Positions 8,421 to 23,937 of a stretch of DNA of 64,000 bases are shown in pieces. Position 1 is the stretch's first letter; each line of letters starts with the position of its first letter. The position numbers were made by a program, and so were the translations under genes. The DNA comes from an uncultured Chloroflexia bacterium (GTDB lineage Bacteria; Chloroflexota; Limnocylindria; Limnocylindrales; CSP1-4), in NCBI GenBank assembly GCA_963828165.1, contig CAWHDR010000005.1, positions 1 to 64,000 on the forward strand. Direction: 5' to 3'. The notes beneath the pieces were generated by a model. It searched no databases. It saw only the letters and a list, made by a program, of their open reading frames with translations, and was not told where the DNA came from.

Positions 8421-9198
8421 ATGGACCTCATCGCCCTGTTCACATCCCCCGAGACCTGGGTCGCCCTGCTGACGCTGACGGTGCTCGAGATCGTCCTCGG
8501 CATCGACAACGTCATCTTCATCTCGATCCTCGTGCAGCGGCTTCCGGCGCACCAGCGCGATCAGGCCCGATACATCGGCCTGGGGTTGGCCATGGGAATG
8601 CGGATCCTGTTGCTGCTGACGATCTCGTGGATCATCGGCCTGACGCAGCCGCTGGTCACGCTGTTCGATCGTGACTTCTCGTGGCGCGACGTCATCCTCA
8701 TCGGTGGCGGCGTCTTCCTGCTCTGGAAGGCCACCACCGAGATCCACGAGACGCTCGAGGGCGATGAGGCGCATGCGGCAACGGGCGCAGGCACGGCCGC
8801 TCTGGGCGGCGTGCTCGTGCAGATCGTCCTGCTCGATATCGTGTTCTCGCTCGAATTCGGTCCTGACCGCGGTCGGCCTGGTCGATGAGGTGGCGATCAT
8901 GATCGTCGCCATCGTCGTCGCCGTCGGCGTGATGTTGGTCGCGTCCGGGCCACTCTCGAGGTTCGTCCACGACCATCCATCGGTCAAGATCCTCGCCCTC
9001 TCGTTCCTGCTGCTCATCGGCGTCACGCTCATCGCGGACGGCTTCGGCTTCCACATCGACAAGGCCTACATCTACGCGGCCATGGCCTTCAGCGTCTTCG
9101 TCGAGGCGCTGAACCTGCGGCGCCGGAGCAAGAGCAAGGCGATCGAGCTTCGCCCGACCTACCGCGTCAAGGACGACGCAGACCCGGCGGCGAGCTGA
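8421..9198 (+). CDS. TerC family membrane protein, one frameshift near 8855
   Basis: LEIVLGIDNVIFISI, QIVLLDIVFSL, HPSVKILALSFLLLIG, YIYAAMAFS. Confidence 0.92.
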
Positions 9199-9199
9199 G

Positions 9200-10123
9200 C
9201 TACCCCGGGATCGCCTGAAGGAGCTCCTCGCCGACCTCGGGCGGCACCCACAGGGACGTATGCGCCTCGGCGTAGGTGCCGAGGTCGCCGTGGTAGTCAC
9301 TGCCGCCGGTCGAGATGAGCCCGAGGTCGCGTGCGACCGCCCTGACGGCCTCGACGGTAGCCGCGTCGAAGGTTCGGTAGTACACCTCCAAGCCGCGTAA
9401 TCCCGCTTCGGCCAGTTCGCGCATCACGTCCAGCCGGGTCGGCGCCTCACGGAAATGCGCCAGCACCGGGATCCCACCGGCAGCCGCGATCGTGGCGATC
9501 GCCTCCTCAGGGCCCAGACCCTCACGCCGGACATATCCGGGCGCCCCGTGCCCGATGATCCGGCCGAACGCGTCCTCGACCGTCGTCGCGAACCCCGCCG
9601 CGATGAGCGCCCTCGCAATGGTCGGCCGGCCCAGGGCGTCGTCGGCACCGACATCGAGGGCCGCCACCTGGGCATCGATGGGCAGCCCGAGCTCCCGCAA
9701 GAGCGCCACGGTCCGATCGAATCGCTTGCGCCGCGCGTCCCGCTGCGCCGAGAGCGCCGCCTCAAAGGCCTCATTCCCGGGGTCCATCCCGAACCCCAGG
9801 ATGTGCAGCTCCCCTTCCCACAACCCCAGATCCCGAGTGACGAGAGCATTGATCTCGACCCCGGGAATGAGCTGGAGCCCAGCGGGTAGCTCCGCGGCGG
9901 CCAGCTCCCGATAGCCCGCCAACGTGTCGTGGTCCGTGAGCGAGAACGTCCGCACACCGGCGGCTGCGACGGCCTCAACGAGCGCCGCAGGCGCAAGCAC
10001 TCCATCCGACCGCGTCGAATGGGAGTGGAGGTCGACCGTCGATGGCCCCGCCGGCACCACTGCGCCATCGAGCGCTCGCGGGTCATGGCGGCGTCGAGGT
10101 CGGTGCGGTACAGCGCCGGGCAT
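9200..10123 (-). CDS. PHP domain metal-dependent phosphoesterase (TrpH/YciV-like)
   Basis: DLHSHSTRSDG, LTDHDT, GVEI, LHILG, VLAH, TGGSDYHG. Confidence 0.92.
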   Translation of the reverse strand: MPGAVPHRPRRRHDPRALDGAVVPAGPSTVDLHSHSTRSDGVLAPAALVEAVAAAGVRTFSLTDHDTLAGYRELAAAELPAGLQLIPGVEINALVTRDLGLWEGELHILGFGMDPGNEAFEAALSAQRDARRKRFDRTVALLRELGLPIDAQVAALDVGADDALGRPTIARALIAAGFATTVEDAFGRIIGHGAPGYVRREGLGPEEAIATIAAAGGIPVLAHFREAPTRLDVMRELAEAGLRGLEVYYRTFDAATVEAVRAVARDLGLISTGGSDYHGDLGTYAEAHTSLWVPPEVGEELLQAIPG

Positions 10124-10181
10124 CGTGCGAGCCTACCAATCCCGTGCCGGAACAGCCGCGTCCAGCCGGCCCGGCAATCTC

Positions 10182-10206
10182 GTCGCGAGACAGGACGCTT
10201 TGCGAC
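10182..10206 (+). other. Hybrid recombination-site candidate (attL/attI-like) GTCGCGAGACAGGACGCTTTGCGAC
   Basis: Right 14 nt GGACGCTTTGCGAC match the cassette-site consensus; left arm differs but GTCGCG is nearly the reverse complement of TGCGAC at the same spacing. Confidence 0.7.
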
Positions 10207-10210
10207 AATA

Positions 10211-11631
10211 GTGTGTGCTAATGTTCCTTGGTGCCGAACTGCCGCCGCCGTCTATGCCCGCATCTCGTCCGACCCTGGCGGTGATCGGCTTGGCGTCACG
10301 CGCCAGATCGAGGACTGTCAGGGGTTCGCAGACCGTCGCGGCTGGCCCGTCCGCGAGGTCTACATCGACGACGACCGGAGCGCCTACTCCGGCAAGCTGC
10401 GACCCGAGTACCGGCGGATGCTCGATGACATCCGCGCAGGCGACGTCGATGCCGTGGTCGTCTGGCACCTCGATCGCCTGCACCGCCAGCCCAAGGAGCT
10501 CGAGGAGTTCTTCGAGGTCTGCAAGGAAGCGCGCCTGACCTCGCTGGCCTCGGTCACCGGCGACACCGACCTCGCGACCCACGACGGCCAGTTCCTCGCG
10601 CGTATCCTCGGAGCCGTGGCCAAGAAGGAGAGCGACGACAAGAGCCGTCGGATCAGCCGCAAGCACCAGGAGCTGGCCCAGGCGGGCAAGCTGGCCGGTG
10701 GCGGCGACCGGCCGTTCGGCTACCGCTCCGATCGGCGCACCGTCGAGCCAACCGAGGCGGCCGCGATCCGCGAGGCTGCCGCGCGCGTCCGCGCTGGCGA
10801 CAGCCTCCGCGCCATCGCGTCCGACTGGAACGCCCGAGGGATCACGGCGGTCCGGGGCGGCGCGTGGTCCAACCAGGTCCTCCGTCGGATGCTGCTCAGC
10901 CCGCGGCTGTCCGGCCAGCGGGCCTACCAGGGCGAGATCGTGGCGAAGGGCGAGTGGGAGTCGATCCTGACGCCCGATGACACGTCCCAGCTGTCCGCGA
11001 TCCTCGGCGATCCGGCTCGGCTGACCCGTCGCACCGTTCGTCGCTACCTGCTGTCGGGCGGCCTGCTCCGCTGCTCGTTCTGTGACGCCGTGCTCGTGGC
11101 TCGACCACGCGGCGACGGCACGCGCCGGTACGTCTGCGCCAAAGGCCCGGGACTCCCGGCTGCGGCCGCATCGCGATCCTCTCCGAGCCGCTCGAAGCGC
11201 TGGTCACCGAGGCCGTGCTGTACCGCCTGGACACGCCCGAGCTGGCCGCGGCCCTGGCTGGCGCAGCGAGCAAGGATGCGGAGGCCGATGCCGCCCACGC
11301 GTCCGTGACGGCCGACCGTGCCCAGCTGGAGGAGCTTGCCCGCGCCTATGGCGAGCGCCAGATCACGTTCCCGGAGTTCCTCGCCGCCCGCAAGCCGATC
11401 GAGGCGCGGATCGACGCGGGGCAGCGCAAGGTCAGCCGGTTGACCCAGACCAGCGCGATCGCCGGCTACGTCGGCGACGGCGAGGCGTTGCGCGAGGGCT
11501 GGGCCGAGTTGCCGCTCACCCGTCAGCGAGCGATCGTGGAAGCCGTCCTGGATCGTGCTGTGATCCGGCCAGCGGTCCGCGGGCGGACCCGTTTCGACCC
11601 CGACCGCGTCGATCCCGTCTGGCGGCTCTGA
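10211..11631 (+). CDS. Large serine recombinase (resolvase + recombinase + zinc-ribbon + coiled-coil), frameshift near 11160
   Basis: AVYARISSD catalytic Ser, SAYSGKLRPEY, WHLDRLHR, GDRPFGY, LLRCSFC...RYVC...GCG zinc ribbon; continues in ORF 11215-11631; alternative start GTG 10231 behind TGcTAATGT would need an indel. Confidence 0.93.
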
Positions 11632-11753
11632 CCGAGCAACACCACGATCGAACCGATCGCTGCTCGGTCGACGACCTTCACCGACACGCCCTGCGCCTCA
11701 CATGTCCGCTCCGCCCACCGCCTGGCCATGTCGCGCGCCTCCGGGGCGCTCAT
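11523..11753 (-). CDS. Small basic protein coupled to rep and antisense-overlapping the recombinase 3' end
   Basis: MSAPEARDMARRWAERTCEAQGVSVKVVDRAAIGSIVVLLG; ATG overlaps the corrected rep stop (ATGA at 11750-11753). Confidence 0.55.
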   Translation of the reverse strand: MSAPEARDMARRWAERTCEAQGVSVKVVDRAAIGSIVVLLGQSRQTGSTRSGSKRVRPRTAGRITARSRTASTIAR

Positions 11754-12527
11754 GCCCACGATGCCCACACCGCGGGCGGTCCGTCCCACCGCTCCTCATC
11801 ACGCGACCGCCAGACCCGCTCGGCTGGCGATGCCCATGTACGTCTCCGCCCACCCGATCACCTCGTCCGCCGATGCCCCGCGGATAGGCACCGTCCTTGG
11901 TTGGAAACCTTGGCCGACCTCATAGCGGTGCAGCCCGCTGCCGTCGACCCGGCCGAGATCCTTGCCCATGTACTTGGACAGGTAGCCCGCCGCTTTGCGT
12001 GCCTCGCCCAACGTCCCCGCGCCGACCGGTAGGTCGCCGAGCAGGGTGATGTGTACGAAGCCGTGGCCCCAGGCACGACGGATGGCGGTGTAGTGGATGT
12101 ACCGGCCAAGCGCGAAATGCAGGTGAAAGCGCTCCCCGTCGGCGTGCAGCTCCGGAACCCAGACGTACGGGAACGCCTCTCCAACCTCGCGGCGCAGCCG
12201 CCGGACAAACTCGGCGACGTCGCGTCGCAGCCGTCCCGGGTCGGTGCAGAACGGAGGCCCGTACGTAAGCGTGCCAAGCCGGTTTAGGCGGTTCGCCGCG
12301 CAGTACCGGCGCACCTTCGCCCTGGCTCGACGCGCTGCGTCGGAGGCGTTGCGATCCGGGTCCGCCCCGGGTGCTCCAGGGCCCGGGTCCTCGCGCCTAA
12401 CAGATCGGAAGGAGCCGCCACCCTCGGCCGCCTCTGGGTAGAGAGCGAAGCTCCATCGGGCCTCTTTCGGGCCCACGAGTTTCGTCCCAGATTCAAGTGA
12501 AGACCGGGTACGGGGATGACGAGTCAC
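11750..12527 (-). CDS. Rolling-circle replication initiator (HUH endonuclease)
   Basis: Motif 1 GTLTY, motif 2 PELH..RFHLHF, motif 3 YLSKY; SD AGGAG/GAGGT before GTG 12527; a 1-nt indel near 11830 gives C-terminus SPAERVWRSRDEERWDGPPAVWASWA*. Confidence 0.85.
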
Positions 12528-12880
12528 ACCTCAGCTCCTGACACGCAAACGGACCCTTTCGGGTCCGTTCCGTTCAGGGCGGCTAGCTAGTCATCAGTCA
12601 GTCGACTTACACGAGGGCTGTCCCTGCGGGATAGCGTGTCCCTCGTTGCGGCGCGCCCCCGCGCTATCGGGGTTTGGCAGGCCCTAACCACCTAGACCTG
12701 CAAGCGCTGTCATTCAATCCGCTGGGCGACCCGTTCGCCGTATCCGATCCTACGCGATAGCGGCGCTTTGCTCAAGGACCGGTGCCTGGCGACGCCGGTC
12801 AATCCATCGTGCGCCGTCGGCCGCGCGTCAAGGGTCCGCGGGCTTCGCCCGCCAGGCCCATACCTGCCCTTGACCCGCTC
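12490..12880. other. Hairpin-rich non-coding region, candidate rolling-circle origin (dso/sso)
   Basis: Stems AACGGACCC-TTTC-GGGTCCGTT (~12549-12570), ACGAGGG..CCCTCGT (~12611-12646), GCGGGC-TTC-GCCCGC (12838-12852), GTCAAGGG..CCCTTGAC (12827-12874). Confidence 0.5.
12707..12730 (+). other. Degenerate cassette-site copy CTGTCATTCAATCCGCTGGGCGAC
   Basis: Left half CTGTCATTCA fits the consensus; right half divergent but ends GCGAC. Confidence 0.4.
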
Positions 12881-12940
12881 CGCCCTGCGATCGATTAGAG
12901 GTGACGCGCCGGCGGGCATGGACTCTCGGTGACGCGGACG

Positions 12941-13303
12941 CTACGGCCCGCACGGATCCTCGCCAGGGCATGAAGCATCACCACTTTCACCCCGGAGGTT
13001 CTCGGGCACATGAGCGTTCGGCGGTTCGTATGGGACCTGGCCGGTCCGCACGACCTCGTGATCCGAGGACACCTGCTCCGGCGGCCAATCACTCGGGCGC
13101 CTTGGAAGCCGTTGCACGTCGACTGACACGCCGAGCCAGTCCGAGACCGGGCCAGCCATGGGAGGGGAACGGTCGTGATGAGTCCTAGCGCTCGCCCCTT
13201 CCGCCTCGAAAACGCAGGGCGGCTGCGGGGCGCTGGACGCACTCGCCGTGGGGACAGCTCCTGCCAGCACCACAAGCAGCAGAATGCGCAATGTCCCGCT
13301 CAT
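12941..13303 (-). CDS. Hypothetical secreted protein (cassette 0)
   Basis: MSGTLRILLLVVLAGAVPTASA signal peptide; TAGGAT 9 nt upstream. Confidence 0.5.
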   Translation of the reverse strand: MSGTLRILLLVVLAGAVPTASASSAPQPPCVFEAEGASARTHHDRSPPMAGPVSDWLGVSVDVQRLPRRPSDWPPEQVSSDHEVVRTGQVPYEPPNAHVPENLRGESGDASCPGEDPCGP

Positions 13304-13495
13304 GATCGCCACATCCTAGACCCAGGCATCGCTCGCTACAACAGTCGAAAGGCGCGCGCTCTCTAGCCTCCACAGCCCATCAAGTGACTTTCCGGGACAC
13401 GTTGCGACCCTGACCGCCCTCTCGCCGCCTGCCGCCTACCGTGCGGCGCGCACGATGACGCCCACGACGCAGCCAGTGCCGTTACCCTGCCCCCA

Positions 13496-14131
13496 ATGGA
13501 ACCGCGAACCCAATCGGAGCAAACCGAGAAGGTCGCATGCGGCAGCCGCATCACCGTCCGCGCGGCCGCCTTCCGTGTGGCCGGCACGATACTGGCGTTG
13601 GCTATCGGTCTCACCGGATGCGCTTGGCCGCAATCGGGCCCGAGTACCTCACCGCCGGCGACATTGGCGGAGTTGGGGGTTCCAGCGGCGGACGCGCTGC
13701 CGCCGCTCCAAGCGGAGGCATTGGCGGATGGCGCCGTTACGCGGGAGGAGTACGCACAGGGGTTCGCCGCATTTGCCCGATGCGCCGACGACCGGGGAGA
13801 CCCGTTGGATGTGATGGGAATCGACCCTTCGACGGGATTGGTCCGGTACGGCACCACGCAGCTGTTGGGTGTCCCTGGCAAGCCTGGTGGCGGGCCACAA
13901 GGAGGATGTTACGAGGAGACCTTCTCCTGGATCGAGTTGGTGTTCCAGGTAAGCGACCCGGCAGTCCTGGAAAAAGGCTACGCCGACCAGGACGCGCTGT
14001 ATGCGGCGGAGGGAGCGGCTTGCCTGGCGCGAAACGGGATCGATGCGCCCTCCGAGGTGGACACCCGCACACCAGAGGGACTCGAGTGGCTCGGCCGATA
14101 CGCTGAGCTCGCCTCCGATCAGAAGTGCTGA
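13496..14131 (+). CDS. Cassette 1: putative lipoprotein
   Basis: ILALAIGLTGC lipobox; QAEALADGAVTREEY; several Cys. Confidence 0.75.
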   Translation: MEPRTQSEQTEKVACGSRITVRAAAFRVAGTILALAIGLTGCAWPQSGPSTSPPATLAELGVPAADALPPLQAEALADGAVTREEYAQGFAAFARCADDRGDPLDVMGIDPSTGLVRYGTTQLLGVPGKPGGGPQGGCYEETFSWIELVFQVSDPAVLEKGYADQDALYAAEGAACLARNGIDAPSEVDTRTPEGLEWLGRYAELASDQKC

Positions 14132-14298
14132 TGGCAGCGGGGGTCGTCGTTCGTGCCAACCATCGTCTGGTGTCATTGGCGCACGCTTTGCGACGCTTCC
14201 GTGGTCTACACGGGAAGGTGACGACGATCACTCGGGCTCCGATTCGGGCCAGCCGGGCGCGCCTTGACATGGATTCCGCACGCCGGCAGGCGCGTGGC

Positions 14299-14712
14299 TC
14301 ATGTCATCGCAAACAGTTCCCCGGTGTATGAGCGGCTGACCCAGAATCCGAGCGCTTCGAGGGCGGCCTCCAGTTCGTCGAGCTCTGCAAGGGTGTCCGC
14401 TGACGGAAACAGGACTCCGTAGATCCTCAGAGCGTCGACGTCCGTCTCGATCCGTCCGCCGAGCGGTTCGATGGCGCGTTCGAGGTCCGCGCGAGATTTG
14501 CCGCCGAAACGCGCGCCGGTCATGACGATGAGCGTACCTCGGGCCATGCAATCGCCTTCGGAATCGAGCATGAACTCTGGCGCCGGACAATCCGCGTCGA
14601 CCACCACATGAGGCCAGCTCGTCGGGCCGAGGGTCACGAGGCTGACGGAGAGGACCACGAGCACAGCCAGGAGCCACGGCGACCTGCCACCGTGCGCGAC
14701 GTGGCGAGGCAT
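14299..14712 (-). CDS. Cassette 2: hypothetical membrane-anchored or secreted protein (reverse orientation)
   Basis: WLLAVLVVLSVSLVTLG hydrophobic stretch followed by a globular domain; start uncertain. Confidence 0.65.
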   Translation of the reverse strand: MPRHVAHGGRSPWLLAVLVVLSVSLVTLGPTSWPHVVVDADCPAPEFMLDSEGDCMARGTLIVMTGARFGGKSRADLERAIEPLGGRIETDVDALRIYGVLFPSADTLAELDELEAALEALGFWVSRSYTGELFAMT

Positions 14713-14917
14713 CCTGTCAGACGGTCTTGTAGCGGGCGGGGGCATCCCGGTCCTTCGATCTCGGAGCGCTACCGTTGAGCATGAGTCGAAGAGCCCCCAC
14801 ATGCAACGACCCACCGCGATGCCTGGTGCGAGCAGGCACGCGTACACACTACTTCTCCATCTTCGTCAGGTGACATTCCCGCACGCAGTGCGACCGTGCG
14901 GTGATACGGTCAGGCAG

Positions 14918-15196
14918 ATGGGAGCGACGACCGAGCGCTTGGACTGGCCGCACGTCTATCGCGTCACTCTGCAGGGACTCAATGGAGAGGCCCGCGCGCA
15001 GACCGTGCTCACATTCTTCGGCGAGTTGAAGGCCGTCGCGATGGTCGTCCAGGGGCACTCGACCGGTTGGCTGGGACCGAAGAGGACGTGGCCGGTCTAC
15101 GCCGTCGAGGTGGACGACCTTGGACCGGCGCCGAAGAACAAGGACGGCACGGTTGGCTGCCCTAAGGGTTGCTGGGACGATCGAAGCGAGTTCTAG
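14918..15196 (+). CDS. Cassette 3: hypothetical protein
   Basis: 92 aa ORF filling the inter-site interval; TACGGT 7 nt before ATG. Confidence 0.7.
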   Translation: MGATTERLDWPHVYRVTLQGLNGEARAQTVLTFFGELKAVAMVVQGHSTGWLGPKRTWPVYAVEVDDLGPAPKNKDGTVGCPKGCWDDRSEF

Positions 15197-15312
15197 GTCA
15201 GGGGCGCTGCAGACCCCCACCCGACGGCGACGATGCCGCAGGCCTCGGTCAAGGGTCATTGGCGGACACTGTGCGACGCGGGCGATACCATCCCGCAGAC
15301 GTAGGAGTAGCG

Positions 15313-15999
15313 TTGACTGACCACGCGCGCGCATATGTTGCCGCTCTCCTTGATGCATGGCAGGCGGGTACGAAGCGACCCCAGGATGTGTTCCGAGACG
15401 CCCGGGCGTCCTGGCTCTCCGGAGCCTGGCCGAAGGCGTCTCAGCCCGGCCACGACGCGATCGGCATGGCAGTCCTCTACATCCTTGCGACCGCCCGTGA
15501 TGCGGGACTGACCGACGGGGATATTCCCCATCTGCGTGCCTATCTGGCCGCGCGCGATCCGGCGAAGGCACAGGAGCAGTTCTTCGCCCACTGGGAGGCG
15601 ACCGGAACGGCGGTCCGCGAGGCTGCGAGCCGGCGCGAGGACTACTACGGACCGGCGCCGACGGATGGCGTGGACGACATGGAGTTCACGTTCTCCGACC
15701 CCGACGACCGCCGACTGCATCAACTGGTGCGAGAGGACCCCGAGACGGCTTGGCCCGATGTCCGAGCACGCCTCTGTGCGGCGCCGCCTCGGGACGAACT
15801 CTTTCTACACGACCTTGTCGAGGACCTGATGTTCAACGACCCGGACCGGTTCATCGACCGCATCGAGGCCCTCGCGGGGCAGTGCCCCGCGGCACGCGAG
15901 CCTATCGCGCGTGCGTATGTCGGTGGCCGTGCGAGCTCACCCGGTCTCGAGCGCTTCTGGACCCTTCAGGAACGGCTCGGTGGCTGGGGATCGGGGTAA
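15313..15999 (+). CDS. Cassette 4: two-domain hypothetical protein, C-terminal domain DUF6869-like
   Basis: SD AGGAG before TTG; EDPETAW...LVEDLM..DPDRFIDRIE; family name is from memory. Confidence 0.7.
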   Translation: MTDHARAYVAALLDAWQAGTKRPQDVFRDARASWLSGAWPKASQPGHDAIGMAVLYILATARDAGLTDGDIPHLRAYLAARDPAKAQEQFFAHWEATGTAVREAASRREDYYGPAPTDGVDDMEFTFSDPDDRRLHQLVREDPETAWPDVRARLCAAPPRDELFLHDLVEDLMFNDPDRFIDRIEALAGQCPAAREPIARAYVGGRASSPGLERFWTLQERLGGWGSG

Positions 16000-16044
16000 G
16001 CCCTCGGGTGACATTCCCGGACACTTTGCGAAGTTGCCGACTTG

Positions 16045-16431
16045 TTACGGCGAACTCGGGGCGCTGAACGACGGGCCGACGACGACCGGCCGCTCGGGAA
16101 CGACCCCCGGGTCGACACCCAACGGGACGAATCCTCGCCCCGGCACGTCATGGCCGATGATCGTCTCAAGGTTGTCCGCGTAGACCGGGATCGGGTCGCA
16201 CTGCGGCCCGCGGCAGCGTTGCTCGGACTCGAGCAGGAACGACTTCGGAACCCAGCCGATGATCCGATCGGTGCGGCCGACGTATGCGATGAAGTCGGGA
16301 ACCGCGCTCGGATCGACCTCCCCCTCGGCGTTCGCTGGCGGCATCGTTCCGCGGGAGGGACCGAGATGACATGCCGACGAGCCAAGGAGGATGATCATGA
16401 GCCCGACCGCCATCGTCACCCAACGCGCCAT
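16045..16431 (-). CDS. Cassette 5: putative lipoprotein (reverse orientation)
   Basis: MIILLGSSAC lipobox-like; VPDFIAY..IIGWVPK..IPVYADNLETIIGH; TAGAGT 7 nt before ATG. Confidence 0.75.
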   Translation of the reverse strand: MARWVTMAVGLMIILLGSSACHLGPSRGTMPPANAEGEVDPSAVPDFIAYVGRTDRIIGWVPKSFLLESEQRCRGPQCDPIPVYADNLETIIGHDVPGRGFVPLGVDPGVVPERPVVVGPSFSAPSSP

Positions 16432-16554
16432 GCCGCGGACTCTAGCAGCGCACGCGGGGCTCCCTGAATGCCACCATCCCCTGGTGTCATTCACGAACAC
16501 TTTGCGACGCACTCATCCATCCGCTGGCCGCCGTCCGGGCCTATCCTCGGCGGT

Positions 16555-17067
16555 ATGCCGATAGTCCTCGCCAACGAAGACGGGTCGTACGTCGAACCAG
16601 TCAAGACATCGCGGGTCAGCTTGGTAGTGCTCTCCGATGAGTTGCGCCCGCAGCAGATCACGGCTGCGTTGGGCCTCCAGCCGGACGAATGGGCGTTGCG
16701 CGGCGAGTTGGAGTCACACCCGCCCGGACGGTGGAAACGGAGCCGCCCGCATCCGCACCACACTTGGAAGCTGGCATCCCGGCTTCCCGAAAGCGCCGAG
16801 CCGGAGGCCCACCTCGCCGACGTCCTTGACCGTCTCGGCTCTGCTGCCGATCGCGTCGCGGACCTCAAATCGGACCTCCGAATCCACAGCGTTCGCCTGT
16901 GGCTCTTCTTGCAGATCGACAACGAGAACCCCGGTATCGGGCTCGATGCGACCCTCCTTAGTCGCCTGGCCGAGCTTGGCACGGGCCTCGACATCGACGT
17001 CTACGTCGACCTCGCCGACGCCGGGCAGTCTGACGCGACCGCCACTGACACTGTCGCGACCGAGTGA
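16555..17067 (+). CDS. Cassette 6: DUF4279-like protein
   Basis: ITAALGLQPD...HTWKL...LLSRLAELGTGLDIDVY pattern; stop TGA lies inside the next repeat. Confidence 0.75.
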   Translation: MPIVLANEDGSYVEPVKTSRVSLVVLSDELRPQQITAALGLQPDEWALRGELESHPPGRWKRSRPHPHHTWKLASRLPESAEPEAHLADVLDRLGSAADRVADLKSDLRIHSVRLWLFLQIDNENPGIGLDATLLSRLAELGTGLDIDVYVDLADAGQSDATATDTVATE

Positions 17068-17254
17068 CATTCGCGAACACTATGTGAGGCCACGAACCAG
17101 TCACACCCTCGGGCGGGTCAGACCCGTCTCACCTTGTCTGACCCGTCTCGACGGGCCTGAGCAGGTGCGGAGCCGGCGAGTTCTTCGACCGCGGATGGAC
17201 CATCCACTCGACGTTGACCGAGGATCGATGAGCTCCGGCGAGTATGCTCGGGGC

Positions 17255-17686
17255 ATGGATCGACTCGAGGTTCGCCTCGTACCGCACAAAGAGAAGAACG
17301 ATGCGAGGTGGGTTGCGGTTGACCTCCTTGTCAACGGCGAGAACCTGAAGGCTTTGGTCAAGTCTTACGAACAGGCCCGTCGCTACAAGCCGGCCGGCGG
17401 CTATGACTCCATCTCACTCGATGGGCTTCTGCCGGCGGCGGCTCGCCGCGCAGGGTCGTCGGACGACTGGCCCGAAGACGGCGAGACTGTCCTCCTAGTC
17501 TGCAAGAGTTGCCGGGAGGAGGGCTCCTGGCCGATCCTCGCCCGCGTGACCCTCTTTGAGGATCTCGTTGAATGGTCCGCCTTCGGTCAACCGACCTACC
17601 CGGAGCGCGACTACACGGGCCTCCACTTCACCTTCGATCGCCGGCAGTACGACGGTGAGATCCGTCGGGCATTCGGCCAGCCGTAA
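17255..17686 (+). CDS. Cassette 7: hypothetical protein
   Basis: LLVCKSCREEGSWPILARV..VEWSAF..FTFDRRQY; TATGCT 6 nt before ATG. Confidence 0.75.
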   Translation: MDRLEVRLVPHKEKNDARWVAVDLLVNGENLKALVKSYEQARRYKPAGGYDSISLDGLLPAAARRAGSSDDWPEDGETVLLVCKSCREEGSWPILARVTLFEDLVEWSAFGQPTYPERDYTGLHFTFDRRQYDGEIRRAFGQP

Positions 17687-17832
17687 CATCACTCGGGCCG
17701 TCGACCGCGGAACTCACGCGGATTCGTAGCGACGAGCCACGATGATCGTTCCCTTGACCAAGTGACATTGACGCACGCGTTGCGACGCGTCGACTATGTC
17801 GCCATCACTCACTGGCCAATAACATCCTGAAC

Positions 17833-18390
17833 GTGCCCTTCCGCGTCGCAACTACCGCCGCCCTCGCGTTCCTGCTCGTCACGGGATGCGCGGCGTTTTC
17901 GGCGCGGGAGGCGACGGTTGAACCGAGTGACTCCATCGGGATCATCAACGGCTTCTTACTTGCCACTGCCGCTGAAGCCCGAGCGATGGCCTTCGAGGAG
18001 ATCCCACTCCCCGCGGATGTTCCATCCGTGGAGTGGAAGAACATGGACCCCGTGAAGCTCGCCACCTTGGAGTCGATCCTCACAGGCGTTCCCTACGACG
18101 AGGTCATGGATCAAGGCGGAATGGACGCGATTTACGTCGGCGGCCAGGATGGGCCGTTCGCTTTTGGCGTTCGCACCGATCTCAGGGACGCCCTGGCGGC
18201 GACGCCATCGGATAAGTTGCATGACGTCTCGGCAGCTTGGCTTCAAACCGAGGAGTGGCAGATGCAGTACGGCGGCAAGGTGCGCGAGTCGGACATTGCA
18301 GAGGTTGCGAGCTTATTGGGCGAAGTGGTGACGCTGGCTGCGAGGGCGCGCGACACAGGAGCCAACCTCTACATTCTGGCAACCCTCTAG
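17833..18390 (+). CDS. Cassette 8: putative lipoprotein
   Basis: LAFLLVTGC lipobox; DPVKLATLESILTG..AAWLQTEEW..LAARARDTGANLY. Confidence 0.75.
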   Translation: MPFRVATTAALAFLLVTGCAAFSAREATVEPSDSIGIINGFLLATAAEARAMAFEEIPLPADVPSVEWKNMDPVKLATLESILTGVPYDEVMDQGGMDAIYVGGQDGPFAFGVRTDLRDALAATPSDKLHDVSAAWLQTEEWQMQYGGKVRESDIAEVASLLGEVVTLAARARDTGANLYILATL

Positions 18391-18446
18391 CCACCGGGTG
18401 TCATTGGCGGACACTAAGCGGCTTGAGGGACCAGTATCCTCGTGCC

Positions 18447-18665
18447 GTGACACTCTCGATGTTCCTGGCGATGCTCGACGAGCGACGCGTCGCTTACCGA
18501 CTCGATCGGGTCCGAGACTCGATCATGGTTGCCGTCGCCACCCCTGGCTCCCGATGGGAAGTCGAGTTCATGGACGGGGGAACCGTGGAGGTCGAGCGCT
18601 TCCGCAGTGACGGAACGATCGGGGACGAGCGAGCCATCGAGAAAATGCTCGCGGAGCTGGAGTAG
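18447..18665 (+). CDS. Cassette 9: small hypothetical protein
   Basis: DSIMVAVATPGSRWEVEFMDGGTVEVERFRSDG; TATCCT 6 nt before GTG. Confidence 0.75.
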   Translation: MTLSMFLAMLDERRVAYRLDRVRDSIMVAVATPGSRWEVEFMDGGTVEVERFRSDGTIGDERAIEKMLAELE

Positions 18666-18727
18666 CAGCTCCGTTCTGGTGACATTCCCGGACCCTTTGC
18701 GACCTCGCCGACCTGTAGTCTCGTTGG

Positions 18728-19145
18728 GTGGATGACCGAGCCCGAGCACATCAGATCGCTGAGTCGATTCCCGTGAAGCAGCGTGCGGCGTAGGTCGCGA
18801 AGGTTCTCGCTGCCGCCACCGACGCCTGGAACTGCCGCCCGATGTCCACCTGTTGACAGACCCTGACCTCGACTTTGTCAAAGCTGCGAACATCTTCCAC
18901 CGATTGCGCACCCTGACCTTGGACGTGGAGCGTGGCGCCAGGACGGACTTCGTTACCTCGTCCTGATGGCTGGAGAGAACGCTGCCAAGGTCGTGGCGGA
19001 CCCATGGGGCGAACGCTTCAACCCCGACTCAGCGGGTTGGTTTTGGCTGTGCGTTGAGGACCTTCTCGCAATCAGATCGATCGACTCGTTGACCCGCATC
19101 GTGACGCCGATGTTGGCCGAGGTCGTGGGCAGTCGGACCGGGTGA
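18728..19145 (+). pseudogene. Cassette 10: disrupted hypothetical gene
   Basis: GTG start behind TAGTCT, in-frame TAG after 21 codons plus frameshifts; 3' frame LVLMAGENAAKVVADPWGERFNPDSAGWFW ends at TGA inside the repeat at 19142. Confidence 0.55.
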
Positions 19146-19189
19146 CATTCCCGGACACTGTGCGACCACGCGGCCTGTACCCTCGTGAG

Positions 19190-19516
19190 GTGGAAGCAGA
19201 GAATGCCGATCAGTCCTGGGCCGTGATGCTCGCCTTCGTTGCGGAACACGGTGACAGCCTCGAGGCTGCCGCGCTCGTCGAAGACTTCATCGATCAACAC
19301 GCCGATGCATTCGCTCCTCGGATCGAAGAACAGGCGTGGAAGGATCCCTCCTTTGCAGCGCTCGTCGCCAACGCTCACCTGGGCGACATTTCCGGTCCAG
19401 GCGTTGGGCGGGTGGCTCGACTTCAGGATGCCCTGTTCGAGCGCGGCGACGTCGGCACCCGGTGGCGGGGCTGGATGCCTCTTGCGCCTGATCAGATCCC
19501 GCGAGACGACTCGTAG
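19190..19516 (+). CDS. Cassette 11: DUF6869-like protein, related to the C-terminal domain of cassette 4
   Basis: SWAVML..LVEDFIDQHADAFAPRIEEQAWKDPSF; TACCCT 6 nt before GTG. Confidence 0.7.
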   Translation: MEAENADQSWAVMLAFVAEHGDSLEAAALVEDFIDQHADAFAPRIEEQAWKDPSFAALVANAHLGDISGPGVGRVARLQDALFERGDVGTRWRGWMPLAPDQIPRDDS

Positions 19517-19598
19517 GCTTCGCCGCTGCTCAGGCGTCATTGGCGAACACAATGCGACCGAGGCATTTACTGCCCGGATGCGACGACAATGGGACGTC

Positions 19599-19919
19599 AT
19601 GGGCATTTCCGTCGTCGTCACCAAGGACGTGTTAGAGCCACTTCCCGATGGCCGGACATCGTTCGGCATACGTGACCCGGCCGCCCGCGCGTTGTGGCGG
19701 CAACCGGACGGCACGCTTTCCGGAGGAATAGATCCGGTGGGGATGACCGTGTTCAACCGAGGCCAAGTGTCGCGACTACTCCAGGAGTTCCGGGTTCTCG
19801 TCGCGCAGTCGGACGAGCGAACTCGTCAAGACCTGGAAGACGCCGCCGCCTTCATCGAGTCCGAGATGGCCGCGATCGGTGCGGGTCTCGAGTGCTACGT
19901 CGTATTCCTCGGAGACTGA
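19599..19919 (+). CDS. Cassette 12: hypothetical protein
   Basis: LSGGIDPVGMTVFNRGQVSRLLQE...YVVFLGD* pattern; alternative start 19578. Confidence 0.72.
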   Translation: MGISVVVTKDVLEPLPDGRTSFGIRDPAARALWRQPDGTLSGGIDPVGMTVFNRGQVSRLLQEFRVLVAQSDERTRQDLEDAAAFIESEMAAIGAGLECYVVFLGD

Positions 19920-19999
19920 TCGGCAAAGACTTTCAGGTGACATTCCGCACGCTTTGCGACATCCTGATCCCGTCGCCCGAGCGTTTCCCGCCTTTCCGG

Positions 20000-20482
20000 A
20001 TGCGGCTGGGCATCAAGTATCGTCAACCAATCAAAGCTGCCTTCCTTTGCTCGATCCTCATGTTCCTCTTGGCTGGCTGCGTCAGCGGGCCAAAGGCTGA
20101 CGAGCTGCGTGCCGATCCGGTGTTGGAAGTCACCTACCCCGACGACATCGAACTGGCGACCGATGCAGGAGACCCGGGGTGGGCACTCACCCACAACTAC
20201 TCTGGACATGTCACACGTCTCATGGCGTCGCAAGCCTCGCAACCCGACGTTCTCGCCTTTTACGGCGAGTCCTACGAGTCCGCCGGATGGCTGCCGACAG
20301 ACGGGTATCTGTCTGGGGACTGCTCCGGCTTTGCGGATACCCACTGGCAGAAGGGCGACCTAGAACTCAGCATCGGTTGGGTGGAAGAGTTGCCCTTCTA
20401 TCCCTGCGGCCTGACAGAGGAAGAACTCGCCCAGTACGTCACGGTCTACGAGATCACGATGCGATCCACGCGGCCCGAGTAG
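20000..20482 (+). CDS. Cassette 13: putative lipoprotein
   Basis: ILMFLLAGC lipobox; DVLAFYGESYESAGW. Confidence 0.75.
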   Translation: MRLGIKYRQPIKAAFLCSILMFLLAGCVSGPKADELRADPVLEVTYPDDIELATDAGDPGWALTHNYSGHVTRLMASQASQPDVLAFYGESYESAGWLPTDGYLSGDCSGFADTHWQKGDLELSIGWVEELPFYPCGLTEEELAQYVTVYEITMRSTRPE

Positions 20483-20542
20483 GCGCGAGCCAGGTGACAT
20501 TGACGCACGCTTTGCGACCGGTCGGCTCTGTACTCTGATGGA

Positions 20543-20857
20543 ATGCCAACGCGTCCGTGGTGGTTACGCCGGCCCACACCCGCACTTGCACGCGAGCGCC
20601 TCGCAGCAGGGTTTTGTCCGGGATGTGGTTCTAGCGATCACATTCCGATTCACTACGACGTGATGAGCCCCGACTACCGCGCGGCACAGCGCGGCGCGTT
20701 CATTGAGCGGCACGTCGGCGCTCCGGGTCCGAATCGAAGCTGCCGCAATTGCGGCTTCGCTTCACCATCCTGGCCTGTCCGAACGCTGGAAGCGGGTGTC
20801 ATTGGCGGACACTGTGCGAACGTGGCGCGCCCTCACAAGGCGCTCGTCGGCGAGTAG
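20543..20857 (+). CDS. Cassette 14: small zinc-ribbon protein that reads through the downstream site
   Basis: CPGCGS..IPIHY..CRNCG; TACTCT 6 nt before ATG; no stop before the site at 20796. Confidence 0.65.
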   Translation: MPTRPWWLRRPTPALARERLAAGFCPGCGSSDHIPIHYDVMSPDYRAAQRGAFIERHVGAPGPNRSCRNCGFASPSWPVRTLEAGVIGGHCANVARPHKALVGE

Positions 20858-20866
20858 AGTCGCTCG

Positions 20867-21263
20867 ATGAGGCCGCTGGCTGTGTTGTGGGTGCTCGTGC
20901 TGGTGCTCGCCTGCGCTCCGGCTCCGGCGCTGCAGCCTGATCGCGTCAGGTCCATCGACGCGGCAAGCCTCACGAACTGTAAAGACGCCTTCCGGATCTG
21001 GGTCGACGGTGCCCAGGCGCTGAACAGTGCAGACGTCGACCTGACGGAGACACTATTCGAGCAGGAGGTCGTGCAGCGTCGCGTTTTCGAGCTGTGCAGC
21101 TTGGCCGAAGCCGAGATGTACAACGTGGAGATGCTGTGGGAGCCGGCGCCGGGCATCAGTCAACCGCTGATCGAGCGCGATTTCCGCACATTCGCCGAAA
21201 TCGAATGCGTCGACGAGTCGCCTACTCGACGGGACGCGCCTCTGCGCCGAAGTGGGTTACTAG
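20867..21263 (+). CDS. Cassette 15: putative lipoprotein, frameshift near 21222
   Basis: VLVLVLAC lipobox; corrected C-terminus ECVDESPLLDGTRLCAEVGY* (TAG 21261-21263). Confidence 0.68.
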
Positions 21264-21414
21264 ACCGTCTGCTGGGTCCCTCGACAGGAGTCATTGGCGC
21301 ACGCTTTGCGACCAGGGCGTCCGCGTGCGGCCGCCGTCCAGGGCGTTCGGCCGCCCGTCGGTCGTCGACGGGCGCGTCAGTCAGGCTGGCGCGACCACGG
21401 GCTAGACTCGGCCC

Positions 21415-21744
21415 GTGGAACCAAGGCGATGGCCCATCCTTGGCTACGACGCGGAGCGCGACCTGCCCTTCTACCGGCTCGTCGTGAGCTTCCGCAACGC
21501 CGTCGAGCTGACGATGATGTCCCGCGGCTTGCCCCTCGACACCGACCACATCTTTTGGGGGTTTAGCGGGTACGAGCCTCCCCTACGACGGATCCGACAC
21601 GACGACGAATGGCCAGACGACGATGGCCTCGCCGCATCTCGGGTGCCGAAACGGCCATACGACGGCACGGGTTCCGCCAGCGTCGAGATAGAGCCGCCGG
21701 TCGAGGAATTCCTCGACGAGGGACGAGTCCAGCTCAGCTTGTAG
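21415..21744 (+). CDS. Cassette 16: hypothetical protein
   Basis: 109 aa ORF; TAGACT 6 nt before GTG. Confidence 0.68.
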   Translation: MEPRRWPILGYDAERDLPFYRLVVSFRNAVELTMMSRGLPLDTDHIFWGFSGYEPPLRRIRHDDEWPDDDGLAASRVPKRPYDGTGSASVEIEPPVEEFLDEGRVQLSL

Positions 21745-21922
21745 ACGGCCCTCCAGTGTCCCGGGGCTGATCTATCACCCTTCGGAAGCAATCAGTCCGA
21801 GGCCGTCGCTCGGCTGTCATTCCCGGACGCTTTCCCACCACGGGCTCCTCGCCCTGGGCGATGCCGGCACATCTGTCGCGTGATGCGCGTCCGATGCACA
21901 GCCACGGTCTCTCGGAGACTGG

Positions 21923-22615
21923 ATGACCACACGTACGACCCTGCGACTCGGTACGACCCTCATGTTGGTTTTCGCGGCCGCGCACTGGACAGCCGGTCCG
22001 GTCGCGGCCGAGTGCCCGTTCATCCCGCCGTTTCCGAGGGCCGAGCCAGCCATCCGTTCCGCCGAAGAGGTGATCATCGGCGAACTGGTCGGCGCCTCAG
22101 CAGCCGACTTCTACCTGGGACCGAACCAGGGCCCGCGCAGGATGGGCATACGCGTGACCGAGGTGCTGCGCGGCCCGAAGGCGCTCGGAGACCTCGTCGA
22201 CGTGCAGTACCTCCAGCCCAACTGGCCGTGGATCACGTATCCAGGCGGGAATGGCAAGGCCTTCCCATCATGCACTTACCTGTTGATGGAGGCGGACGTC
22301 GGGGACACGATCGCCCTCGCCCTGGGCGCGGTCCAGCCCCGACAGCGCATCGAGGTCCAGGGCGTGTCCTGGATGCAGCCCCGAACGACGTACAACGCGA
22401 TGAGCAGGATCCGAAGTCCGGCGAATCTCGCCGAGATCCGTAGGATCGCTGGATTGCCCGAGACCGATTCAGCTCCGAAGGTCACGGCCACCAGCGCGGC
22501 CCGTGTCGATCTGCCGCTACTTGTCGCCTTTGTTGTCGGGGTCATGGGCGGCGCGGTTGCTCTGTGGCGAACCGGGCGTCGCGAGCGGTCCGAGACCGGC
22601 CTCATCCGCAAGTGA
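21923..22615 (+). CDS. Cassette 17: secreted protein with a C-terminal LPETD-TM-basic sorting-like signal
   Basis: Signal peptide ending PVAA/EC; LPETD...LPLLVAFVVGVMGGAVALW-RTGRRER; stop TGA inside the last repeat. Confidence 0.78.
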   Translation: MTTRTTLRLGTTLMLVFAAAHWTAGPVAAECPFIPPFPRAEPAIRSAEEVIIGELVGASAADFYLGPNQGPRRMGIRVTEVLRGPKALGDLVDVQYLQPNWPWITYPGGNGKAFPSCTYLLMEADVGDTIALALGAVQPRQRIEVQGVSWMQPRTTYNAMSRIRSPANLAEIRRIAGLPETDSAPKVTATSAARVDLPLLVAFVVGVMGGAVALWRTGRRERSETGLIRK

Positions 22616-22677
22616 CATTGGCAAACGCTTGCGAATCACGACTCACGTTTCCCAGCACAGCACCTTGCGAGACCCAA

Positions 22678-22852
22678 ATATCGCCACTGGCGATGGTAGG
22701 TTCGGGCTGGATGCAGCGGCCGCCCCAGGCGCTTGAATTGGTTTGAGTCCCGCGGCAGATATCGCCCGGCGCAATATCTGGGAGCGTAAGTTGGCACCGG
22801 ATGCGTTGGAGGCGCGTCGGTTCGACTACGATCGCCCATGGCGATATCCGGG
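22678..22852. repeat. Cluster of three REP-like palindromes (ATATCGCC-N-GGCGAT type)
   Basis: Units at 22678, 22756 and 22831 (third inverted); same layout at 57641-57822. Confidence 0.6.
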
Positions 22853-23014
22853 TGACCGTGAGCTCCGACACGGCTTGGGCGAGGCCACACCAGGCAGGCC
22901 GTGGAGGGGTGGCACCGGGCGGAATCCGGGCGCGGAGCCCGCTAGCGGCGAAGCCGCGGAGGGCGGAGGCGCCCGGCATTCGCCCGGTGACAGGACCCCC
23001 GCAACGCCCCCGCC

Positions 23015-23813
23015 CTAGACCTCGACCAGTCTGCTGGATGCGCTCGATCGCCAGCGCCCGACCCGTCGCCGGATCGATATCGACCTGGGTCGCGTTGAAC
23101 ACCACGGGCCCGCTCCCCACCTCGAACCGGGTCGGCAAGGCGTTGATGAACCGCGGCAGCACCGTCGCCGGATCGAAGCCGATGACGCTCCACACCGGCC
23201 CCGTCATGCCGAGATCGGTCTGATACGCCGTTCCACCGGGCAGGATCCGCTCATCCCCGGTGACGATGTGGGTGTGGGTCCCCACGACCACGCTGACCCG
23301 CCCGTCGAGATACAGCCCGAACGCGTTCTTCTCGGACGTCAGCTCGCAATGGAAGTCGACCAGGCGGATCGGCGGGAGCGGCTCCGGCGAGGACGACTCG
23401 TCGAGCAGGGCATCCGCGTCGGTGAACGGGTTTTCGATCGGCTGCATGAACGTGCGGCCCTGCAGGTTGATGACCGCGACCTGCGACCCATCCAGGGCGT
23501 CGTACACGCCCAGGCCCCGCCCCGGCACCTCGTGCGAGCCGTAGTTGTGCGGTCGAAGCACCCGGTCCGTGGAATCGAGGTACGGATAGATCTCGCGCTT
23601 GTCCCAGATGTGATTGCCGCTCGTGATGACGTCGACGCCGGCGGCCAGGATCGCATCAGCCAACGACGGCGTCAGCCCCATCCCACCCGCGACGTTCTCG
23701 CCGTTGGCGGTGACGAAGTCGATCCCGCGGGCGGCGCGCAGCCCCGGCAGCACCTGCTCGATCGCGTGGCGACCCGGCTTGCCGATCAGGTCGCCGATCA
23801 TCAGGACGCGGCA
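23015..23813 (-). CDS. ymdB: YmdB/TIGR00282 family metallophosphoesterase
   Basis: MIGDLIGKPG, NGENVAGG, TSGNHIWDK, VDFHCELTSEK, GTHTH, TDLGMTG; probable true end IQRLVEV* after an indel; start uncertain. Confidence 0.9.
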
Positions 23814-23937
23814 CGCCCCGGGCGGACGCGGCGCATCGCCGTTGGGCGGGTTGCCCAGACGCGTGAGGCCGATCTGCGGGGGCGACGTCGGCGGCGAACG
23901 GTCTACGTCGCGTCCCCCATCACCATGAACGCGTCAC

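Follow-up and report, generated by a model that had tools for sequence, protein, structure and literature searches.

A gene-cassette array in a Chloroflexota genome with the anatomy of large serine recombinase attachment-site junctions

Introduction

To our knowledge, arrays of gene cassettes have until now been linked with the tyrosine recombinase IntI and folded attC sites, and are essentially unknown in Actinomycetota and Chloroflexota. The first 64,000 nucleotides of contig CAWHDR010000005.1 (here contig C5), from an uncultured Chloroflexia bacterium of the order Limnocylindrales (GenBank assembly GCA_963828165.1; 3.31 Mb in six contigs; G000 hereafter), raise the question of whether arrays of this kind can be made in another way. 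In this stretch, which will be called the window, a short motif recurs many times in a single orientation with genes between its copies, beside genes for a large serine recombinase (LSR) and for a rolling-circle replication initiator of the HUH type (Rep). A first-pass annotation had described a distinct platform of cassette capture and excision, probably run by the adjacent recombinase. What part of a recombination site, then, does the motif represent, which enzyme acts on it, and how could the cassettes have moved? The structural and comparative support given below makes it fairly probable, in our judgement, that the island is a tandem array of attachment-site junctions of the LSR, whose element shuttles cassettes.

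Results

Motif copies and units

A pattern search of the window found 16 copies of the 25-bp motif at up to three mismatches between positions 13384 and 21838, without exception on the + strand; 100 dinucleotide-preserving shuffles gave a mean of 0.00 copies. Two extra copies, each with a 1-nt deletion, lie at 19937 (GTGACATTCCGCACGCTTTGCGAC) and 22612 (GTGACATTGGCAAACGCTTGCGAA) and were also picked up when the halves of the sites were scored separately. The total of 18 same-orientation copies bounding 17 units of 281-798 bp, as the first-pass annotation had counted them, was thus recovered between 13384 and 22636, the units measuring, in order, 786, 700, 383, 755, 476, 580, 698, 636, 281, 463, 392, 403, 557, 302, 492, 526 and 798 bp. 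The main parts are as follows, with site types named according to the anatomy described in the next section.

~10187-22636: island of about 12 kb, putative array of attachment-site junctions
13409-22611: 17 cassettes of 281-798 bp, 13 with plus-strand genes, two with minus-strand genes and two unclear
14170-21838, + strand: 16 internal junctions, attR-like, each with a 22-nt long-spacing arm, GA and a weak short-spacing arm about 17 nt further
14170, 14870, 15253, 16008, 16484, 17064, 17762 and 18398, + strand: starts of the first eight internal motif copies
18679, 19142, 19534, 19937, 20494, 20796, 21288 and 21814, + strand: starts of the other eight
22612-22636, + strand: terminal junction, with a good outer motif and a 1-nt deletion in the inner part, followed by chromosome

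That each unit carries one gene was borne out for 15 of the 17 units, in which a single plausible open reading frame (ORF) was found. Units 10, 14 and 15 are ambiguous in that their ORFs are short, frame-broken or read through the next site. In unit 10 (18679-19141) the ORFs are short and conflicting and in unit 15 the ORF (20796-21487) crosses into the site that follows; frame shifts seem to be present in both, owing to decay of the cassette or to indels from sequencing. Two genes run against the orientation of the sites, in units 2 (14299-14712) and 5 (16045-16431). The 13 clear plus-strand genes stop near or inside the next site, as had been noted: ten of them 8-76 bp before it and three inside its GTGA (stops at 17067, 19145 and 22615), such that the first TGA of the site serves as the stop codon of three window cassettes. 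Many site variants across the genome carry stops in all three frames, with a TGA at position 2 and either TGA or TAA at both 18 and 22 (...CTGACTGAC). The G+C content of the region is 62-67%, compared with about 70% in the surroundings and the genome.

Integron attC sites are imperfect hairpins of 55-140 nt in which structure is conserved and sequence is variable. Nothing of the kind was seen here: six of six junctions folded no better than shuffled sequences (z from -1.39 to +0.67), no Rfam family was matched in window positions 9000-24000, and no tyrosine recombinase lies at the array. The earlier statement that this is not an IntI/attC system therefore stands.

Site anatomy

The 25-bp motif had been taken for a self-contained site, a view that the comparison of 138 distinct junctions led us to abandon. 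Conservation extends from position -4 to 24 (position 1 being the first base of the motif) and falls to background from position 25, beyond which there is a weak mirrored block (G32 0.71, T33 0.42, T36/G37, T38 0.68, C39/A39, C41 0.70). That is, ACRC at 14-17 mirrors GYGT at 30-33, which places the centre of the dyad at 23.5, between G23 (0.85) and A24 (0.99). When the reverse-complemented outer motif was slid over 64 offsets, its score peaked at offset 34 (-17.3, against a background of about -25), where its distance from the centre is 5 bp shorter than on the left arm. The left arm itself is made up of the outer motif GTGWCATT, four variable bases and the inner motif SACRCTKWGC, followed by the dinucleotide GA, with 14 arm columns conserved at 0.94 or more. 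At the starts of six arrays (the window, L003, L004, L017/L019, L016 and L030) the arm has the shorter spacing, G-N-GACA-K directly abutting SAC, which amounts to the motif minus 5 bp.

For serine integrases, Rutherford et al. (PMC3783163) describe a zinc-ribbon motif that lies 5 bp nearer the centre in attB than in attP. Given this rule, the dyad at 23.5 and the 5-bp difference in spacing support reading the repeated 25-mer as a P-type arm of 22 nt plus GA, forming one arm of an attR-like LSR attachment site of about 46 bp, and the arm at the array start as B-type. The first 17 or so bases of each cassette would then be a weak B'-type arm and each internal junction an attR-like P-B' site, and the LSR would presumably cut at GA. 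Variable positions between -2 and 23 are linked by mutual information (positions 10 and 13, z 10.7; positions 4 and 20, z 5.6), and no link was found from arm positions to positions 25-29, a pattern in keeping with exchange at 23/24 rather than at 12/13. A crossover at 12/13, at first drawn from three cassette copies and from half-sites at array ends, was dropped because left-hand sites are not co-inherited in either half, because the linkage spans 12/13, and because the dyad is centred at 23.5. Two observations concern variation of the arm. Within the genus its inner part is homogeneous within a genome and different between genomes, and at G100:C2:726974-730166 and G136:C4:169586-170711 the arms end in GCCA, not GCGA, the dinucleotide presumably being CA as in the actinomycetotal loci described below.

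The length of the conserved stretch, 28-29 bp, is near that of Xer sites and XerC/D-like genes are present in the genome, so dif-like sites of XerC/D or of another tyrosine recombinase, as in pdif modules or recombinase-associated rAID clusters, have to be considered. Xer/dif-type modules consist of two inverted 11-bp arms around a 6-8-bp spacer and are served by XerC/D-type tyrosine recombinases. In the 25-mer there are no inverted arms around such a spacer; the conserved 29 bp have no internal dyad, and the dyad partner lies outside, centred at 23-24. The first-pass annotation had likewise set Xer-type systems aside. A scan with short dif-like motifs found no convincing dif in the genome. 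Three tyrosine recombinases (PF00589) are encoded, at C5:119473, C5:160719 and C1:454536, none of them near an array, and two look like XerC/D. The third (C1:454536) was tried as the array enzyme and rejected: its homologues, none of them more than 43% identical, were seen in 28 of 120 genus genomes with a distribution that does not follow the arrays, and it was not found in G135, G042, G100 or G066. More generally, none of about 25 arrays has a tyrosine recombinase beside it. Immunity-gene arrays with a tyrosine recombinase are reported in the form of rAID clusters (10.1101/471110); for the present sites we regard an origin of this type as very improbable.

The LSR-Rep unit

The region upstream of cassette 1 reads as follows.

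10187-10205, + strand: putative array-start arm, attB-type, outer GAGACAG abutting GACGCTTTGC, then GA (10204-10205)
10206-10227, - strand: putative inverted long-spacing arm, attP'-type, 22 nt, reverse complement GGAACATTAGCACACACTATTG, no mismatches to the arm pattern
10211-11631, + strand: LSR gene, in two frames (10211-11308 and 11215-11631)
11799-12527, - strand: HUH Rep gene (Pfam PF23343, 9.2e-15)
12528-13383: rest of the LSR-Rep unit, non-coding DNA and a questionable ORF on the minus strand (12895-13275), nothing in Pfam above threshold
13384-13424, + strand: putative attR of the LSR-Rep unit, with a long-spacing arm of deviant sequence (GTGACTTTCCGGGACACGTTGC), GA and the start of cassette 1

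When scored in halves, the stretch 10182-10206 is a half-length site, with 20.6 bits for the right half and -30.1 for the left. The region given in the first-pass annotation begins at 10182, its text being silent on this site. Immediately after the site comes the inverted arm, which overlaps the start codon of the LSR gene (10211) and has the same length as the arms of the array sites. By its sequence, 10187-10227 has the classical make-up of an attL: 17 nt of B arm, then GA, then a P' arm of 22 nt in inverted orientation. For this LSR subtype, 351 genomes of the family yielded five left junctions, all of them with GAC at the centre and short-spacing left arms. At the other end, the site at 13384 has the lowest-scoring left half of all sites (8.6 bits) and is read as the unit's own P arm within a putative attR. 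The first-pass annotation had placed the recombinase and Rep genes directly upstream of the array. These borders support the view that the 3.2-kb LSR-Rep unit (10206-13383) is instead the first cassette, a putative integrated small replicon bounded by attL (B-P') and attR (P-B'), and that the array begins near 10187.

The two gene assignments were confirmed by Pfam, with matches of the recombinase to Resolvase (2.8e-28) and Recombinase (1.4e-09), its zinc ribbon being below the cut-off owing to a frame break. Intact homologues of 458-469 aa match Resolvase, Recombinase and Zn_ribbon_recom, all above the Pfam cut-offs, and the closest solved chain is that of an integrase (9iu2_A, 3.5e-14). The LSR of the window is the sole serine recombinase of the genome.

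Arms at other LSR loci

Is the link between LSR and arms peculiar to this genome? We collected 32 loci with LSR homologues of 35-88% identity, in metagenome-assembled genomes (MAGs) labelled Limnocylindrales/Chloroflexia, Thermoleophilia, Gaiellales, Acidimicrobiales and Actinomycetes, and scanned them with a degenerate arm pattern at up to one mismatch. This set of relatives also puts the organism of the window with the Limnocylindria-like Chloroflexota. Of the 32 loci, 29 have an inverted P' arm where the LSR begins. Apart from these, 72 arms were found on the LSR strand downstream of the gene (236 kb) and none upstream (264 kb), and one on the opposite strand elsewhere (530 kb). At least three downstream arms, and up to nine, occur in 10 of the loci. 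In many of the 32 loci the first arm lies 3.1-3.9 kb past the LSR start, matching the 3.2-kb unit of the window, and a Rep homologue is found beside the LSR in 22 loci. Arms of the Actinomycetota read GGGTCATTCCGGAACACTGGCC, then CA, then GGCGAG, likewise with TCAG upstream, and their mirrored inner motif is clearer. Taken together, these data support a sequence-level link of the LSR lineage, in Chloroflexota and Actinomycetota, with arrays made of P-type arms of its own. The co-occurrence of arrays and this recombinase clade, which had been put forward for checking, was seen in one direction, arms lying downstream of the LSR across the 32 loci; the converse, as described below, does not hold in the genus.

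Some individual loci deserve mention. In L077 (Thermoleophilia), a near-perfect inverted inner motif (ACACTCATATGGAGTG) comes after the arms at 14610, 17220 and 20647, giving them the look of full palindromic sites that belong to a second, related type of element. In L071, a 4.6-kb Thermoleophilia contig, four arms come directly after the LSR gene with no Rep homologue between, which means that the replicon module is not always present. No terminal overlap indicating circularity was detected in six of six short LSR contigs.

Arrays, cassettes and cargo in this genome

Whether the motif is confined to arrays was assessed with a weight matrix built from 16 window sites and scanned over the 3.3-Mb genome, matches of at least 20 bits being counted as strong. 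All strong matches lie in five clusters, with uniform orientation within each and none isolated; 13 scattered matches reach merely 12-17 bits. The motif is thus not strewn over the genome, one of the outcomes that had been put forward for checking.

C5:13384-21838: array of the window
C1:585583-591182: array
C1:965241-971782: array
C1:1609102-1611596: array
C1:1778062-1778767: array

Evidence that cassettes have moved between these arrays comes from the unit at 14170-14869, which holds a minus-strand gene for a membrane protein. It recurs at C1:971317-970600 (90.6% identity over 723 bp) and at C1:1610440-1611178 (85.4%), with a fragment at C1:1778739. The homology runs from site to site, and the neighbours differ. 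Other site-bounded units are common to different genomes (L003/L023, L014/L022, L001/L002, and L020 with window unit 17), and one orthologous locus has two sites in G000, compared with 13 or more in G135.

These observations bear on the possibility that the arrays are fossil scars, left by LSR elements that inserted one after another at a single attB and then decayed, with their cargo staying behind and no cassettes moving at present. The absence of the LSR from most arrays, the broken frame of the window LSR and the degenerate terminal sites would fit such a history, as would the orthologous arrays of G135 and G001, which keep the same order at 93-99% identity. The left ends of the cassettes, however, have the short spacing and are not the P' arms that a decayed element would leave, there being no peak at the P' offset; one cassette is found in three arrays of a single genome with different neighbours; and the 14 columns at 0.94 or more argue for ongoing selection on the sites. 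Scars of this kind are therefore, in our view, an improbable explanation.

The cargo was surveyed by taking automatically the longest coding-like ORF per unit in 117 units from 25 arrays. Most of these ORFs have no Pfam match, and those that do fall into 32 families. Immunity-type cargo comprises Barstar (two), Imm1, Imm26, DUF4304 (two), DUF4265, DUF6881, DUF6228 and DUF4279, and enzyme cargo comprises several GNAT acetyltransferases, Glyoxalase_3 (two), APH(6), AadA_C, spermidine synthase and L-PSP. Among the window cassettes the only significant Pfam match is DUF4279 (16555-17067), with weak matches to DUF6869 at 15259-15999 and 19142-19516, and at least four encode lipoprotein or signal peptides.

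The ORF runs with the site in 89 of the 117 cassettes and against it in 28. The first of these numbers, together with the start of many genes about 26-30 nt past the motif and a T-A/C-n-C signal 13 nt downstream of it, would suit a promoter or operator module controlling a regulon of small genes for secreted and immunity-like products. Opposite-strand genes, however, keep the site orientation (units 2 and 5 of the window; the 28 ORFs of the survey). TAnnnT plus start codon had been considered as a -10 box, and was recast as mainly the mirrored outer motif because the A at its second position (A39) reaches only 0.36; a dual role is possible. Strong copies occur in arrays only, the homology of repeated cassettes runs site to site, and a promoter would leave the inverted arm at the LSR start and the 72-to-0 bias of the arms unaccounted for. 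We consider it highly unlikely that the motif is such a module instead of a recombination site; a promoter role could coexist with one in recombination.

Borders of the island and the empty locus in relatives

The genes on either side of the island are the following.

9200-10123, - strand: PHP-domain protein gene, left border (Pfam PHP, 1.3e-08; homologues in 55 of 60 genus genomes)
22602-23801, - strand: ymdB, right border (Pfam YmdB, 1e-95, residues 1-255)

In alignments, homology of ymdB with its relatives begins near 22986-23021, so that the true 3' end is probably near 23020 and the 399-aa ORF probably too long at its 3' end. The 350-380 bp or so at 22637-23020 have no counterpart in 15 relatives, and may be a remnant of the original target or an old cassette. 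Variation at the PHP-ymdB locus had been proposed as a check, and it was found as presence or absence of the island: among 29 PHP loci of the genus, all 15 that have both genes on the fetched locus carry them 11-438 bp apart, and no site was found in any of the 29 (106 kb). As judged from these comparisons, the island is an acquired insertion in an otherwise empty locus. No attB was visible in the empty loci, the intergenic stretches of the 15 relatives being too divergent. Within the assembly itself, contig C6 (24.1 kb) is 95.3% identical to C5:892-10206 and stops exactly at 10206, one base past GA, which suggests that it derives from a second strain in the bin, diverging from the first, or branching in the assembly graph, at the crossover.

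Distribution of arrays and of the LSR

In the genus, the motif (up to three mismatches) occurs in 56 of 120 other genomes, with up to 16-17 matches per genome, and the reversed control pattern gave two matches. It was also found in 30 of 91 genomes of the same family, in several genera. Other families of the class gave single weak matches (1 of 12, 7 of 92, 7 of 103 and 0 of 2 genomes), which is comparable with five control matches. Several arrays end contigs. A common flanking gene was sought by clustering 1119 ORFs around 25 arrays, which gave just synteny between orthologous loci.

Could another recombination system build the arrays, the LSR-Rep element being a parasite whose attP mimics the array site? 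Arrays are far commoner than the LSR in the genus (56 against 8 of 120 genomes), and the four arrays of G000 without an LSR, as well as the failure to find a gene family common to array flanks, would be expected if so. Such a system would, however, have to produce at every internal junction the long-arm/short-arm asymmetry expected of an LSR attR. Moreover, arrays follow LSR homologues in two phyla, the consensus shifting with the LSR lineage (GA here and CA in Actinomycetota), and no other candidate enzyme was found in G000, where two of the tyrosine recombinases are XerC/D-like and the third is uncorrelated with arrays. We thus regard this explanation as unlikely, and retain the LSR as the probable enzyme of the arrays.

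Discussion

How could an LSR build such an array? In the mechanism we propose, an LSR-Rep circle, whose attP is P-P', would integrate at the B-B' site heading an array. With a directionality factor, the resulting attL could pair with the element's own attR or with any attR downstream, and the element would accordingly excise alone or together with the first n cassettes. After reintegration elsewhere, excision at its own attR would leave the cassettes behind and restore a B-B' head. Repeated cycles would stockpile and redistribute single-gene cassettes, and arrays without an LSR, as four of the five in this genome, would be deposits. Only the canonical pairings, attP x attB and attL x attR, would be needed. 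Such a mechanism would yield uniform site orientation, B-type array heads, P-B' junctions, an element in first position, arrays without an LSR and cassettes common to several arrays. We infer from this scheme that attR junctions are used alternatively and that a directionality factor exists. Alternatively, single-cassette circles may be captured directly (P-B' x B-B'), which would be a non-canonical pairing.

A number of findings weigh against the LSR as builder of the arrays. The first concerns its rarity. Four of the five arrays of this genome have no LSR nearby; an LSR (E <= 1e-10) is found in 8 of 120 genus genomes compared with 56 for the motif; none occurs in the array-rich G078, G135, G042 and G066, while G100 and G123 carry theirs a long way from the arrays; and the left junction of this LSR subtype was seen in 4 of 350 family genomes. 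In addition, neither circles nor deletion variants came to light, and two pattern scans of JGI metagenome contigs gave no matches for a free attP or for further left junctions. The second concerns the enzyme. Compared with two homologues, a 1-nt deletion near 11150 (11140-11160, beside GGG) breaks the LSR frame, which may be a long-read error, since the assembly looks long-read, or a dead gene. Canonical LSRs need a directionality factor to act on attR-type sites, and no candidate recombination directionality factor was identified here. The third concerns the sites. The short-spacing arms are weak, with most columns below 0.5 bit, and the signal at T38/A39 could be the -10 box of leaderless transcripts. 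Finally, in the three copies of cassette 14170-14869 the right arm is identical at positions 1-12 and shows two to five differences among positions 13-22, a number higher than would follow from the cassette carrying its entire 22-nt arm along, and not accounted for by exchange at 23/24.

The scarcity of the LSR may be due in part, and not necessarily in full, to the incompleteness of MAGs and to the loss of mobile DNA in binning. As most arrays have no LSR, the enzyme is better supported as a visitor than as a fixed integrase. One further locus, L086 (G100:C2:967212-987676), has a 5'-truncated LSR (residues 150-304) and a partial Rep, with no arms near them, at 247 kb from the array of that genome. 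It has the appearance of a decayed element lying outside an array. Of the first-pass claim of a distinct platform run by the adjacent serine recombinase, then, the platform and its LSR character are upheld by the site geometry, the bounded LSR-Rep unit, the 72 arms against none and the recurrence of cassettes, whereas adjacency is not the rule, the LSR not being a constant partner of the arrays.

Among known systems, the closest in its way of working is that of the SCC/SCCmec composite islands, in which the large serine recombinases CcrAB or CcrC act on tandem elements with direct site repeats. Both have an LSR, tandem units at one site, recombinase-less units that are moved in trans, and excision of one or several units. 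The likeness is one of working principle only. SCC units are several to tens of kb in length and few in number, and sit at one conserved gene, Ccr acting at the 3' end of rlmH/orfX, whereas the units here are single-gene, 0.3-0.8 kb long, with up to 18-21 junctions per array and several unrelated loci per genome; the recombinase is carried on a 3.2-kb rolling-circle replicon, and the host phyla are Chloroflexota and Actinomycetota. Accretion of streptococcal ICE and CIME elements likewise places recombinase-less, att-flanked units beside an element that supplies the recombinase and with which they can be excised, but with a tyrosine integrase, large elements and few units.

The resemblance to integrons is of another kind. 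Here too there are mostly single-gene and mostly same-direction cassettes that each end in a recombination site, a distinct head site where the newest unit lies, arrays without a recombinase (CALINs), and a cargo of GNAT acetyltransferases, glyoxalase-like and aminoglycoside-modifying enzymes and immunity proteins. Unlike in integrons, there is no tyrosine recombinase at the array and no attC hairpin, the sites being conserved in sequence and not in fold; the enzyme occupies the first cassette position on a replicon in place of a fixed divergent intI, and no common promoter of the Pc type is evident. Phage and plasmid serine integrases, as analysed in PMC3783163, share with the present system the Resolvase, Recombinase and zinc-ribbon domains, an integrase gene abutting P', arms of about 22 nt, a 2-bp centre and a B-type outer motif 5 bp closer to it. 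They differ in having one attL and one attR, whereas up to 18 attR-like junctions follow a single attL here. The rAID clusters of Bacteroidales (10.1101/471110) are also repeat-separated and recombinase-associated arrays, with orphan immunity genes as their units, the immunity families here being Barstar, Imm1 and Imm26; they have a tyrosine recombinase and immunity cargo only, whereas the cargo here is broader and the sites are of the LSR type. Full-text literature searches, within the portions of text that they returned, yielded no description of LSR-associated arrays of single-gene cassettes. What appears to be new is therefore a site-specific cassette array using a serine integrase on a small replicon.

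A wider reading, to which we would assign slightly less than an even chance, is that the system is a serine-recombinase counterpart of the integron. That is, an LSR-Rep shuttle of 3-4 kb would capture, stockpile and redistribute single-gene cassettes for immunity, drug modification and stress within and between Chloroflexota and Actinomycetota, with attL pairing with many attR-type junctions and P-B' regenerating a usable attB at the array head in each cycle. The findings point to a second, mechanistically independent route to cassette-array architecture in abundant soil bacteria. The sites being recognizable by sequence, a simple search for motif plus LSR could chart the system. It would also provide an example from nature in which one serine integrase acts at numerous attR-type sites, which bears on directionality control and on multiplex use in engineering, and it would explain why metagenome assemblies break at such regions.

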